A DNA stretch of 64,000 bases from Eledone cirrhosa (lineage: Eukaryota). Location of the stretch: NCBI GenBank assembly GCA_964016885.1, contig OZ024742.1:335234001-335298000 (forward strand), in the 5' to 3' direction. A program made the position numbers and the translations under genes. The notes under the pieces were generated by a model. That model was not told the DNA's origin. It saw only the letters and a list, made by a program, of their open reading frames with translations, and searched no databases. This document shows, piece after piece, positions 186 to 60,393 of the stretch (positions within the stretch are counted from its first letter, which is position 1; the number at the start of each line of letters is the position of its first letter).

Positions 186-318
186 CCTGTGTTCAATCGG
201 CGGTAAATATAGTTAGTAAGGTACTCAATACATTAGTAGGATGTAAACGGTTTCATTGAAAAGGGAAACCCTGACGATTTATTTTGAATGAAACAGTTCT
301 AATCCTGTTGAAACCATT
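186..318. mobile_element. Short PLE pseudo-LTR remnant with degenerate hammerhead
   Basis: CTGACGA...GAAACAGTTCTAATCCTGT at 271-308; tail GTATTGAGTACCTTAC on the minus strand; clear homologue of 15002-15190. Confidence 0.6.
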
Positions 319-404
319 TCTCTCTCTCTCTCTCTCTCTCTCTCTCTCTATATATATATATATATATATATATATATATATATATATATATATATATACA
401 TTTC

Positions 405-1488
405 TTAAAATAACAGATTAAAGTTTAAGCAAAGAATCGCTGCTTTCACCCTTAACGGGATCTTACTTATTTGCATAGGTAAGTATATATTACCCGTATG
501 TTTTGGGAAGGTACGTATACCTTCCCGTACGTATATTTGATTGTTATGGCGTATAATTTTTATATATTCTGGTACATATGATTTGGCTATGTGTATACGG
601 GAGTTTTGCGTCTGTGTGAGTATGCAGGTTCGTACGTATGGTGGGTGTGTGTATATGTGTACTTCATGTTTTAGTTGACTTACGCCTCCGAACATTCGTG
701 TATTTATATGTAGGTATATGTGTGCGCTTGTTATATACGTATTTATTTATTTATATACGTTTCTATAATTATTTATTTATTTGTATACACGCATACACAC
801 ACACACATATTTATATGTGCGTGCTTTTGTATACCTATGGTAAGTTTTTGCGTATGCTTGTGAATGTACGTATTTGTTTGCGTGTATGTATTTATTTATT
901 TATATTACTTCTGTATTATATTTATTTACTTTGTTCTTAACTCTGTAGCGGAGATCCATTTGATCTCCTAGTTAGAATTTTTGTCTACGACTTCTGCTAT
1001 ACCATTTACGTGGTTTTGTCTTTGCGTGCTAGTGTTCTCCACGGTCCACATATGACGTATTATCTTCGTTTTTTCGCTAAATGCCAGAGAACGCTTCTAT
1101 GCACCACCTAAGAGAACATTAGTCTACGACCTCTTTAATACCATAAACGTGGTTCTGTCTTTGCGCGTAATTGTTTTTCACCGCTCCTATTAATGACGTA
1201 TTATTCGTTTTTTCCCGTTCTTTGACAGCGAACGTCACCATGAACCAAAGTATCGTCTTCCTGTCTTCCTCCGGTTGCAACGTTTTTTGAAATATCCACT
1301 TCTGCGTTTACAGATTGACTTTGTTAGTTTCAGAAGATCCCGTTAAGGGTGAAAGCAGCGATTCTTTGCTTAAACTTTAATCTGTTATTTTAATAAATAT
1401 TTGCTCTACGGTTCTTATATATTTGATATATATGTATCCTTATCGAGCCCTCTTTGGATTTTAGTCTTCAAATTTATTATTATTACTA
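405..1488 (+). mobile_element. Non-coding 3' part of a Penelope-like element with partial inverted pLTR
   Basis: 405-464 is the reverse complement of 1334-1393; hammerhead fold at 1326-1376; flanked by (TA)n; near-identical 3' end at 60179-60356 (minus). Confidence 0.7.
1326..1376 (+). ncRNA. Type I hammerhead ribozyme, variant core CAGAAGA
   Basis: Stem I AGTTT/AAACT, core CAGAAGA, stem II CCC/GGG, GAAA, stem III AGCAG/TTGCT, CUU triplet. Confidence 0.65.
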
Positions 1489-1520
1489 TATATATATATA
1501 TATATATATATATATATATA

Positions 1521-1720
1521 ACCAAAGATTAATATGGTTCATTGATTACTCAATGAATACAGTTTTACAATAGATTAAAAGCACTCAACAATAAAGTTTT
1601 CCTGGAGATTTTAATATTATTCAAAATATTAACAAATGAAGATATTCACATAATCAAAATATAATCAATATATATTTTCATTATGTGAATATCTTCATTT
1701 GTTAATATTTTGAATAATAT
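1521..1720. mobile_element. Mini foldback insert (hairpin 1614-1720) in (TA)n, probable PLE 3' end
   Basis: Near-perfect inverted arms of about 50 bp; AAAGCACTCAACAA resembles the PLE tail AAAGCACTCGACAA at about 22902. Confidence 0.5.
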
Positions 1721-2634
1721 ATATATATATGTGTGTGAGTGTGTGTGTGTGTGTGTGTGTGTGTGTGTGTGTGTGTGTGTGTGTGTGTGTGTGTGTATAC
1801 ATTTTAGTCTTCAAATATATTATTATTACTATATATATATATATATATATATATATATATATATACAAACATGTATACAAACATTTTATAATCATACCTA
1901 CACATATTACCGCCATATATATGTATATGTGTATGTGGCTGTGTAGGTATATATATTATACATACAGATATATATATATATGCATTTATATGTGTATATA
2001 TTATATATGTATGTTTGCATAAGTATCATTTTGAATGTACAATCGAGAAAAAGAGTGCTTTATACACACACACACACACACACACGCACGCACACGCACA
2101 CACACACACACAGAGACACATAAATAATATAAAGTCATAAGTTAAACAAATGTGGCATTGTGATTACGCAGGATTTGTAACACGTGTGACAAACGTGTCA
2201 CATTTTTACTCAAATTGATAAAAAAATAATGGCGGAAAATTAAGACGTCGAGAATTTTCTGAGAAAGACAAATGGATAGAGTGTTCTAGAAACCTAGATT
2301 CTTTAGGGTTTTTTGCTTTTGTTTTGGGGCGTAAATCTCTGTGTTTGTGTATAACTGTGTTTACATTCTTTTATTCTTTCTTTTTTTTTTTTTTTTTACT
2401 GTTACTTTGAATTTCGCGGATTGCTCTGATCACCCAACTCTTGAGTGAAACTAAGAGTAGCAACAAAGAGTAATCTTAGTAATAAACTAAAGTGGATTTT
2501 AGTCGATCAGATCAACGTAAAGACTTATCTCTTCAAGACTGTTACTTATTTTGTCGAATTCCTCTTAGGGAAACTTGAGCTTTTGAATTTCAAGGCATTT
2601 TCCAGGGTGAGTGATCGATATTAGATTACCTACA

Positions 2635-3335
2635 CTGGCAGAATAGAATAGTTCTGAGTTCAAATCCCAACGAGGTTACCGTTGCCTTTTATCCTTACAG
2701 GGTCGATAAAATAAAGTGCCAGTAATGCACTAGGGTCGATTTAATCGATATTTCCCCTCCCCCAAATTTCTCGCCTTGTGGCAAATGTAGAAACAACTAT
2801 TATTATTATTATTATTATTATTATTATTATTATTATTATTATTATTATTATTATTATTATTAAAGGAGGTTGATTGGCAGTATCGGTAGAGGGTCGGACT
2901 CCATGCTTTGAAGTATAGAGTTACCCCCCTGTATGATCTGAGTTAAAATCCCGCCGAGGTTAACTTTGCCTTTCATCCTTACAGGGTCGATAAAATAAAG
3001 TACCAGTAATGCACTGGATAATTGCTGGCCTTGTGCCAAAAAGTAGAAACAATTATTATTATTATTAAAAATGCGGTGGATCGGCAGTATCTTCAGAACG
3101 TCAGATAACATGCTTTGTGACTTTGTGGCATATAGTTACGTCCCTTTGCGTTCTGAGTTCAAATCTCGCCGAGGTTAGCTTTGCCTCTCATCCTTATGGA
3201 GTCTATACAATAAAGTACCAGTAACGCACTGGGGGTGTTGATTTAATCGACTTTCCCCTCCTCCAAAATTGTTGGCCTCGTTTCACCGCCCCCAAATTAC
3301 TGGCCTTGTGCCTATACTAGAAACCATTATTATTA
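2635..3335 (+). mobile_element. Three tandem tRNA-derived SINE copies with (ATT)n tails
   Basis: Repeated GAGTTCAAATCCC B-box + TTGCCTTTCATCC + GTCGATAAAATAAAGTACCAG at about 2635, 2862 and 3070; same family at 38215, 53676 and 54050(-). Confidence 0.85.
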
Positions 3336-3439
3336 TTAAGAATATTGCCATTAATACAAGCACCATTACGGCTGCTAGTAACAACAGCAACAACAGCAAC
3401 AGCAACAACAATGGCAGAATCAACAGGAGCAGTAATGCT

Positions 3440-58190: not shown

Positions 58191-58564
58191 ATATAAGTTA
58201 AAACAATGAAATAAAAAATCAAGTCATTAGAGATATACTTCATTGCTTTACGATCGTTTCTAGATGATGATAATACATTGTAGCTATACTCCGTTATTGA
58301 TCTATGTAAGGTTAGTTACAAAATGTCAGATAAAGAGAATATTTACTTACATGCATATCACCAGCTGTTTTCAAAAGCTTTTGAAAACAGCTGGTGATAT
58401 GCATGTAAGTAAATATTCTCTTTATCTGATATTTTGTAACTAACCTTACATAGATCAATAACGGAGTATAGCTACAATGTATTATCATCATCTAGAAACG
58501 ATCGTAAAGCAATGAAGTATATCTCTAATGACTTGACTTTTTATTTCATTGGTTTAACTTATAT
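58191..58564. repeat. Spacerless near-perfect palindrome of about 370 bp centred on AAGCTT (58375-58380)
   Basis: Direct reading; abuts (TA)n; each arm has GAAACGATCGTA. Confidence 0.92.
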
Positions 58565-58924
58565 ATATATATATATATATATAAATGAAGTATTTCCGTA
58601 GGAAAGGTAAAGGAAAAGAGAGTGCTCTATGTAGGCTACAGAGATGTTTAGTTAAGTATATGCGTGAGTTTGTGTATGTTTATGTTTTGGATATTTATTT
58701 ATATATTTTTTCCCCTCGATGTTTTGCCTGTTATTTTATTTCAGCCTCACTTTCATTTATCCTAAATTCTGTTTTCAAATCTATATTAAATAAATATTTC
58801 ATATTATTTTTCTGGTGAATGAAGACAGACATAAATATCTGTCTTCAAGAAACCACTGGTAAATGAAATAATTATCTTATGTTGTTTATTACATAAATAT
58901 ATATATATATATATATATATTAAA

Positions 58925-59102
58925 AACCTTCCAGTCCACACTGTAAACGTGGTTGGTGTTAGGAAGGGCATCCAGCCGTAGAAAACCCGCCAGACAGTCC
59001 TATACGAGCAGGACAACAAATCCTGACTCAAGTGGGAAAACTCCCGTCCAAACCCATGCAAGCGTGGAAGATGGACGTTAAACGATGATAATGATGATGA
59101 TG
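58925..59102 (+). mobile_element. SINE/LINE 3' tail with (GAT)n
   Basis: GGTTGGTGTTAGGAAGGGCATCCAGCCGTAGAAA...GGACGTTAAACGATGAT. Confidence 0.65.
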
Positions 59103-59384
59103 ATATATATATATATATATATAAATGGAATAGAATGAAACGAAATTTCATTTCTCACTCTTAGTACGGCAGTTACTTAAATGTAAGTATGTATGTATGT
59201 CTACGTACATACATATATGTATACAGACGTACAGTAGTATGTATATATATACATACATGCACACATATATATATGCATGTATCGGTTTACCGAACATTTA
59301 TTATAATATGTGTGCATGTATGTATATATGTACATATTACTGTACGTCCGTATACATATATGTATGTACGTATACATACATACA

Positions 59385-59992
59385 TGGTGGCTGCCAACTC
59401 GTTTTCGAGTACGGCCACTACTTTATATCCATGTAGGAGAACCCCTACCGATGCGCTGAACAAGTGTGACTTTTTAGTCCAACCAGCGACTTGAAAACTC
59501 TGGTACAAACACTACACTTGTGACAATTATTGACACATAATGCTGGGCCCATGGTACCATGTGACAACAAGTGCAGAGTGATCTCCAGATATAAAGCAAT
59601 GCCTGTGCCGTGAAGCTTTTATAGTGAGCAAAGGCACTGCACAAAGCCAGTCCCACTCTCTTAACCAAGATGATATTTACCAAAAAGAAGAACAAGTCAA
59701 CATCATTGGATACCATCAGGGTTGCAGGTCTTATATCAGAGTTTTCCTTCTGCTAGAATTCTGCCTTGACAAAGGCTAAGGGTTCATCTCTCCCGGTGAT
59801 TTTGGATGGCCATCGACTCTTAAGAGTTTCTTTGCCCTTTGACAGGTTTTGTTTTTAGTCCTGCAGGATGTCCAAAGTCACCCTCCTCACCAAGAAACCT
59901 TGGTGGGGTTGCCAGTTTAGTCGCCAACGACCCGACCATGAGACAGGTGGTACTGGGATACATGTTACCAGTAGCACCAACTGGTGACCTGA
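59385..59992 (-). mobile_element. Bipartite RTE-derived non-autonomous element (longer copy)
   Basis: RTE-like 5' UTR plus HKCSVCTRVFKSLVGLKSH remnant; same 3' end as the 32955 copy. Confidence 0.65.
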
Positions 59993-60178
59993 CAACAACA
60001 ACAACAGTGACAACAACAAAAACAACAGTGACAACAACAACACCAACAACAACAACAGTGACAACAACATACATACATACTTATATACATATATATATAT
60101 ATTACGTTATGGAATACTGTTAGCTTCTCGCTACAACTATTTCTATACTTTTCATTTATATATATATAATATATATAT

Positions 60179-60393
60179 AGTAATAATAATAAATTTGAAG
60201 ACTAAAATCCAAAGAGGGCTCGAGAAGGATAAATATATATCAAATATATAAGAACCGTAGAGCAAATATTTATTAAAATAACAGATTAAAGTTTAAGCAA
60301 AGAATCGCTGCTTTCACCCTTAACGGGATCTTCTGAAACTAACAAAGTCAATCTGACAGATTGAAGAAACTTTAATCTGTTATTTTAATAAAT
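60179..60393 (-). mobile_element. Solo pLTR of the 405-1488 family with short inverted piece; CAGAAGA hammerhead at 60290-60340
   Basis: Near-identical reverse complement of 1311-1488; 60369-60393 inverts 60268-60293. Confidence 0.8.

Follow-up and report, generated by a model that had tools for sequence, protein, structure and literature searches.

Penelope-like elements (PLEs) that encode an endonuclease (EN+ PLEs) are described, in the available parts of two accounts (PMC8557442, PMC3846280), as high-copy elements with a pseudo-long terminal repeat (pLTR) carrying a hammerhead ribozyme motif, an adjacent inverted and truncated copy, a tail at one end and (TA)n as target. The minimal PLE hammerheads reported in the part of Cervera and de la Pena (2014, PMC4209133) that we consulted have a type I core, a palindromic helix III, a U3-A8 variant and an unpaired base at the 5' end of helix II, and pairs on opposite strands 100-700 bp apart were assigned there to truncated PLEs. 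How PLE head-to-head repeats with a one-sided tail originate is presented as an open question in the available text of PMC8557442. We analyzed a 64,000-nt stretch of Eledone cirrhosa contig OZ024742.1 (positions 335,234,001 to 335,298,000, forward strand; hereafter the window), taken from a 3.0-Gb genome in 1,796 contigs. Simple repeats are abundant in the window, and a preliminary description had listed seven short fold-back inserts in it that lack an open reading frame (ORF). We are highly confident that these inserts are the 5'-truncated 3' ends (pLTR, hammerhead and tail) of several PLE families, joined head to head in (TA)n. They represent new families of a known kind; the biology is real and mostly known, as truncated copies in inverted orientation, tails on one side only, (TA)n targets and pairs of hammerheads on opposite strands are already in print in the parts of the literature consulted (PMC8557442, PMC3846280, PMC4209133).

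The inserts differ from the EN+ PLEs as described there in three respects: their tails are 57-130 nt long, compared with 30-40 nt in known PLEs; most family A inserts are ORF-less stubs with arms ending at a shared position; and the one-tail rule and the asymmetry of the arms are counted here. For annotation this means that the stubs, which resemble miniature inverted-repeat transposable elements (MITEs) or microRNA hairpins, should be filed as PLE ends.

Parent elements

Four families (A, B, D and E) could be followed outward from the inserts into PLE coding sequence for reverse transcriptase (RT) and a GIY-YIG endonuclease (EN). At locus L120, the family A element consists of a tailed pLTR, a 758-codon open frame (RT, CxCx5C linker and GIY-YIG-type EN), a 3' region and a second pLTR, which stops in (TA)16 at the nearer of the two outer sites described below (the short site). 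In Pfam this frame gave GIY-YIG with an E value of 0.016, below the cut-off, and no RT match, and family B gave RVT_1 (7e-05); EN motifs are also present in the family B sequence. The family E ORFs are 50-52% identical to the family A protein, and family D at L181 runs into an ORF that is 37-51% identical to it (39%, E 1e-55, in one comparison). The single ORF with RT and C-terminal GIY-YIG domains that characterizes EN+ PLEs was therefore found in these families, for D and E by homology to A. A pLTR arising from a partial tandem precedes the ORF at L120 and L030 (A), L161 and L174 (E), L181 (D) and L130 (B), and the one-end tail, the inverted 5'-truncated copy and the hammerhead motif of the pLTR are all present.

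Families A and E carry, as judged by eye, the motifs of the Hydra clade, namely an RWK-like motif (RWR), DKT, the CxCx5C linker, CxxC before the E and CxH after the N, and share with that clade the short single ORF, the (TA)n targets and the hammerheads. Family G has the linker and EN motifs of the clade and family D is placed there by homology to A only, whereas the linker of family B (Cx4CxxC) is Neptune-type. These labels are motif-based and follow the descriptions in the available parts of PMC8557442.

Exact 24-25-mers matched the genome 8,667 times for the family A tail, 18,992 times for family B and 12,999 times for family E; a variant 27-mer of family D had 17 matches. The lengths of the inserts form a continuum that reaches full ORFs. 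The earlier suggestion that the inserts are the shortest products of PLE integration is supported.

Inserts in the window

The PLE-derived features of the window are as follows (C3 is hammerhead core position 3; features with arms in both orientations are unstranded).

186..318, unstranded: old, decayed insert, head to head and akin to family A; tail 191-256; the core of the hammerhead at 271(+) lacks the helix I 5' strand
400..464, minus: lone tail-less arm of family E adjoining (TA)n; 98% to 1334-1398 and 60268-60332
787..1486 (start is a lower bound), plus: longer 3' copy of a family E PLE; hammerhead C3 at 1331 (U4A), tail running to (TA)17
1521..1717, unstranded: family F insert; tail and 102-bp inverted repeat, truncated 3' of any hammerhead
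14215..14811, unstranded: family B head-to-head insert, Neptune-type linker; tail 14215-14271, hammerheads with C3 at 14463(-) and 14620(+)
15002..15190, unstranded: minimal family A insert, Hydra-type; tail-less arm with complete hammerhead (C3 15054, minus) and tailed arm (C3 15061, plus)
20456..22793, plus: larger sibling with PLE ORF; RT 20674-21444 and GIY-YIG 21755-22252 inside 247-bp inverted repeats
22845..26404, unstranded: larger sibling, family G; 980-bp inverted arms, tail 22845-22933, hammerheads at 23032(-) and 26306(+)
35847..37999, plus: 3' portion of a further PLE that runs up to (TA)29; core and helix II of a hammerhead at 37881
40632..41152, unstranded: old hammerhead palindrome with a family A-like tail; C3 40682(-), split by a terminal-inverted-repeat (TIR) element at 40776-41094
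58061..58563, unstranded: family D insert, Hydra-type; tail 58061-58195, U3-A8 hammerhead variant at 58374(-) and 58381(+)
60179..60393, minus: family E insert; the tailed arm (60179-60355) carries a hammerhead, C3 60335(-), and adjoins a tail-less arm of 27 bp

Six of the seven inserts first listed are inverted repeats of themselves in a self-BLAST of the window: 1617-1717 (94%), 14272-14811 (94%), 15006-15109 (96%), 40640-40738 (85%), 58196-58559 (98%) and the 27-bp pair 60268-60294/60367-60393. The paired arms diverge by 2-15%. The seventh, 186-318, gave no inverted repeat against itself; BLAST identified it as a degenerate relative of 15002-15190 (79-86% identity in three pieces), so these two do not belong to unrelated families, as had been claimed for the whole set. 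The longer tail on one side was confirmed, although the insert placed at 58191 begins at about 58061 and its tail is about 130 bp long. The left flank of 40640-41150 is another repeat and not (TA)n. This insert is a mosaic, in which the tail of the palindrome is interrupted by the 319-bp TIR element with an 8-bp target duplication, presumably hAT-like. The palindrome itself was not traced to an ORF, and it scored only its self-match in a search.

Among the longer copies, 20456..22793 has strong Pfam matches (RVT_1 2.4e-15, GIY-YIG 2e-06) and a hammerhead core at 22647, and extra sequence to the left of 20456 may be its tail. The family G element holds an endonuclease fragment at 24721-25338(-) that is 36% identical to the family A protein (E 1.8e-27), 35847..37999 weakly matches the C-terminus of family B (E 2.8e-06), and family E, to which 787..1486 belongs, continues into a PLE ORF in L161 and L174. 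Family F was not traced to any ORF.

A descriptor requiring both core boxes and helices I-III found seven hammerhead sites in the window, compared with a mean of 0.3 in 20 block shuffles (C3 at 1331+, 15054-, 17351+, 23032-, 26306+, 40682- and 60335-), and 14620+ passed an earlier descriptor. The hammerheads of the preliminary description were recovered in part: at 271, 22647 and 37881 both core boxes can be seen together with helix II but no helix I is formed, no hammerhead was found in 1521-1720, and the U3-A8 variant at 58374-/58381+ had been overlooked. The site at 17351(+), with a helix I of 11 bp including G-U pairs and a long helix II, is a further hammerhead-like site outside the original list. 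Helix I reads GATTC/GAATC in 138 arms and, with compensatory changes, GCTTC/GAAGC in three. With the minimal PLE hammerheads reported in the consulted part of PMC4209133, these motifs share the type I core, the unpaired base at the start of helix II, the palindromic helix III and the U3-A8 variant. In contrast to them, family D has a 107-nt helix II (its helix I is 8 bp in untruncated copies), and the family E sites at 1331 and 60335 read CAGAAGA (U4 to A). No hammerhead family appeared among the 150 of 252 Rfam matches listed for the window, the best Rfam match of 14995-15125 was Hammerhead_3 at 20 bits (cut-off 48.5), and the folding z-scores of five motifs were unremarkable (-1.27 to +0.17). 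Rfam and folding energies neither support nor refute motifs as small as these.

The proposal that (TA)n is a reused landing pad is supported. In family A, (TA)3 or more follows the tail end in 82 of 90 copies, compared with 7.4% of window positions (three of the remaining tail ends continue into the ORF and five are other), and in family E (TA)4 or more lies near the tail end in 65 of 70. Tracts are shared between different families, for example at 14215-15190 and at many other loci; inside (TA)n, target-site duplications are unreadable. The 3' region of the full family A element contains a TA/TG microsatellite of about 1.8 kb (L120:2500-4300), so that the element would spread its own target sequence.

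Arm architecture and arm ends

Arm positions are given relative to the A that starts the 5' flank of the hammerhead in family A (C3 = +6) and to core position 3 in families B, D and E. The outer ends of the arms lie at two fixed sites per family: +59/66 and +135 in A, about +69 and +154 in E, and +183 and +312 in D. A tailed arm is joined to a tail-less arm in 15 of 17 family A pairs picked by hammerhead and not by tail (binomial p 1e-3 against 0.5), and in 19 of 21 family B pairs (p 1e-4 against 0.5); in the other two A pairs the tails are, by eye, internally deleted. The short arm extends further 5' by 20 nt or more in 13 of 52 A pairs (two of them duplicates), in 4 of 20 B pairs (by 275-1,727 nt) and at 8 of 70 E loci; an excess of this size on the tailed side occurs in 3 (A), 9 (B) and 3 (E) cases. 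Five arm ends at -18, which are alignment artefacts, were taken from a different alignment or left out of these tallies, and neither L257, which joins two tailed arms, nor the reference locus (L262) enters the B comparison. Since more 5' sequence is often found in the tail-less arm than in the tailed one, the "fold-back" mechanism of the preliminary description is probably wrong.

The inner ends of the arms cluster. In family A, 33 of 90 tailed ends fall at -4..+9 and none at -87..-15; in family E, 11 of 70 ends fall at -8..+3 and none at -69..-22; and in family D the ends of 8 of 16 loci fall at -11..+14. In all three families the cluster coincides with helix I's 5' strand. Across the genome, the junction lies in the 5' part of the hammerhead in 4,815 palindromes, which come from diverged subfamilies. 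Contigs of separate public runs, which can show neither transcription starts nor expression and whose depth gives no copy number, contain joints between opposite strands in the interval 1499-1507 of L030 (about 0 to +8); the loose ends in these contigs form their largest group at 1502 (106 and 94 records). Both family A arms stop at the cluster although they start 66 and 135 nt away, which indicates that the stop is set by template position and not by length. What we take to be an initiator-like motif stands at the cluster in family A, with a TATA box 31 nt upstream of it, favouring a transcription start. On the basis of these sequence patterns, we lean slightly towards the interpretation that the cluster marks where the template RNA has its 5' end.

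Formation of the inserts

We consider it probable that each insert was built from two cDNAs, one per RT start site, that were then joined. The RT-endonuclease would nick both strands of a TA tract; priming from one nick would start at the far site and so yield the tail, whereas the other nick would prime at the near site. The two cDNAs would stop independently of each other, and their 3' ends would be joined by microhomology of 0-8 nt or with a few bases added. In family A, the start sites would lie about 66 and 135 nt from the place where the template RNA begins or blocks RT (the 5' edge of helix I), and this closeness is probably the reason why the smallest inserts are common. Two cDNAs from two start sites, joined at their 3' ends, would explain both the one-tail rule and the short arms that exceed the tailed arms, and near-perfect hairpins would result where the two cDNAs end at the same place. 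In L1 twin priming, an inversion arises from a second internal priming event; here, however, the second site is fixed and the arms usually overlap, which leads to duplication. The hammerhead would be a passenger of the pLTR that stays uncleaved in most templates; 4 of 90 family A arms (two of them duplicates) start at +43..+45 near the cleavage site, a count confounded by microhomology in helix I.

The Poseidon PAc in vitro system (Frangieh et al. 2024, PMC11167929) offers a biochemical parallel. In the available text, the PLE protein cuts AT-rich DNA, nicking and extending both strands, begins RT at two internal sites, which delimit the tail, and takes uncleaved RNA as its template; it is a predicted dimer, and hammerhead cleavage is not needed. 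However, PAc belongs to another clade, and inverted insertions and a 5' end cluster are left unexplained in that text. In the literature covered, which included few subscription papers, self-priming was the only proposal found for PLE inversions, and neither a two-cDNA account nor a 5'-end cluster was found. With tens of thousands of young copies, arm statistics can separate snap-back of one strand from the joining of two cDNAs, and they point to specific, mappable RNA ends.

Several observations weigh against these interpretations. The family B cluster (10 of 58 arms at -74..-56; the window copy 14215..14811 has its junction at -72/-68) lies 56-74 nt upstream of the hammerhead, just upstream of what we take to be a YY1-like motif, and not at helix I, and families E and D have no TATA box at -30. 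Genome matches number 17,787 within hammerhead A and fall to 1,993 at 85 nt upstream, in line with the family A cluster, but a single tandem array contributes about 2,200 or more to the former figure, and subfamily divergence also lowers the upstream counts. A G, as expected from a cap, precedes the first base in 10 of 27 arms, a test confounded by microhomology, which accounts for many of them. The family B pair loci were selected for being pairs, most samples are the first matches on contig C1, and the junction samples are ordered by position. Finally, near-perfect hairpins, which snap-back also predicts, are frequent, the inner ends lying within 5 nt of each other in 23 of 52 pairs in family A and in 5 of 20 in family B.

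It is possible, but in our view rather doubtful, that the helix I cluster is not a transcription start but a splice acceptor, the stop of a 5'-exonuclease at the folded ribozyme or a site of template switching created by the complementarity of helix I. The position is common to three families, two of which lack the TATA box; in family A a pyrimidine run and CAG end exactly at the cluster, and, in the available text of PMC4209133, the intron of D. virilis Penelope ends at the 5' end of helix I. However, no common exon-1 sequence precedes the cluster in the 58 arms that end there, family B clusters elsewhere, and no strong structure is predicted just upstream in family A.

An unlikely account of the arms, which shares the PLE origin, is that one strand folds back, by cDNA snap-back or by self-priming on an antisense RNA, and that the endonuclease later trims one arm. 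Self-priming has been proposed for rotifer Penelope (PMC3846280), and the tail has been ascribed to EN-mediated resolution (PMC8557442), in the parts of these papers available; the process would yield one tail per insert and the many near-perfect hairpins. It would, however, need large loop-outs and re-cutting of the primed end where short arms exceed tailed arms by 45-1,727 nt, and the same again where tailed arms begin beyond the short site (L118, L045, L328), and the tail is tied in vitro to two RT start sites (PMC11167929, available text).

The preliminary description had also raised the possibility that the inserts are retrozyme-like mini-elements that propagate themselves, and had proposed fixed palindrome centres as the test; in this view, the smallest fold-backs would be transcribed and inserted again as whole units. 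The centres are not fixed, although the junctions cluster, which had not been foreseen. Among 32 family A palindromes there are 26 junction types, five of which recur two or three times; the motif-to-motif spacing of 21 family B pairs ranges from 60 to 5,581 bp; and family D centres differ between copies (BLAST top matches, which favour the query junction, were excluded from frequencies). Copies do not share the fixed centre and ends of a MITE, and the mini-element option fails its own test because the fold point differs from copy to copy. The 4,815 minimal palindromes with similar centres, the recurring junctions and the existence of family A tandem hammerhead arrays are what such elements would leave. 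Yet the length continuum up to full ORFs, the same cluster in diverged subfamilies and the absence of the upstream TATA box from minimal inserts make them improbable, and retrozymes are head-to-tail tandems in the available part of 10.64898/2026.07.22.740005, unlike the head-to-head pairs of the window. Assembly or amplification chimeras are extremely improbable: whole window inserts were not shown to be spanned by any contig or long read, but the window arms differ by 2-15%, the outer ends are fixed, the loci number in the thousands, and joints of this class recur in contigs from separate public runs.

Tandem hammerhead arrays

Head-to-tail hammerhead tandems of family A, which the preliminary description did not foresee, occur elsewhere in the genome. 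A strand imbalance in hammerhead match counts led to them: junctions of head-to-tail 78-bp units gave 2,189 forward and 3 reverse matches.

G000:C28:30,496,700 to at least 30,852,000 (loci L362-L377): 78-bp hammerhead satellite derived from the family A pLTR

The array starts as the right arm of a tailed head-to-head insert. Of 11 spot samples, 7 contained it, the furthest at 30.85 Mb, so that it spans at least 355 kb, and 18 of 30 units in L366 keep the hammerhead core pattern. At C1:350.2 Mb there is a piece of 8 units that shares this junction and has no TA flanks. Smaller tandems elsewhere have units of 64, 79 and 85 bp and of 1.08 kb; the last, at G000:C1:83,679,800-83,699,000 (L263, L264), comprises twelve copies (pLTR with hammerhead, tail and microsatellite) and forms the left arm of a head-to-head insertion. 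By structure, tandem head-to-tail units each with a putative type I hammerhead fit the definition of non-LTR (non-long terminal repeat) retrozymes and hammerhead satellites derived from PLE pLTRs (PMC7229834 and 10.64898/2026.07.22.740005, available parts), although unequal crossing-over could equally have expanded them. A hammerhead satellite that starts directly from a PLE insert is a step needed by the PLE-origin model of animal retrozymes.

The joining of two cDNAs can be extended, tentatively, to a dimeric, two-headed RT-endonuclease that primes both nicks at two programmed sites on an RNA that starts, at its 5' end, with the hammerhead's first base, with the resulting stub able to seed a retrozyme-type array. 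If this is true, unit-length transcripts would give strong-stop-like stubs by the thousands and full copies would come only from read-through tandem transcripts, and the passage from stub to array would be recorded in the 355-kb satellite that begins as an insert's right arm.

Other repeats in the window

The sequence at 40008-40640 (also L229-L247 and L283-L312) is a separate non-coding repeat of about 1.2 kb in which no hammerhead was found and no ORF was seen. Its terminal palindrome measures 460 bp, is built around a fixed 95-nt centre and has CTAG as its last bases in front of (TA)n. It is the only fixed-centre fold-back found; its motif spacing is 133-143 bp in 17 of 17 pairs among the first 100 of 667 matches. 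The centre occurs in both orientations relative to the long extension. A tandem 5.5-kb repeat that contains this element was considered as its parent and rejected as a local duplication.

A 15-bp G-rich tandem repeat of 466 copies, open in more than one reading frame, occupies 3439-10386. Two fragments of non-LTR retrotransposons lie at 43813-45605 (RVT_1 and zf-RVT) and 60397-61909 (RVT_1 and C2H2 fingers), and older, weaker inverted repeats (69-75%) at 27059-27512 and 59189-59385.

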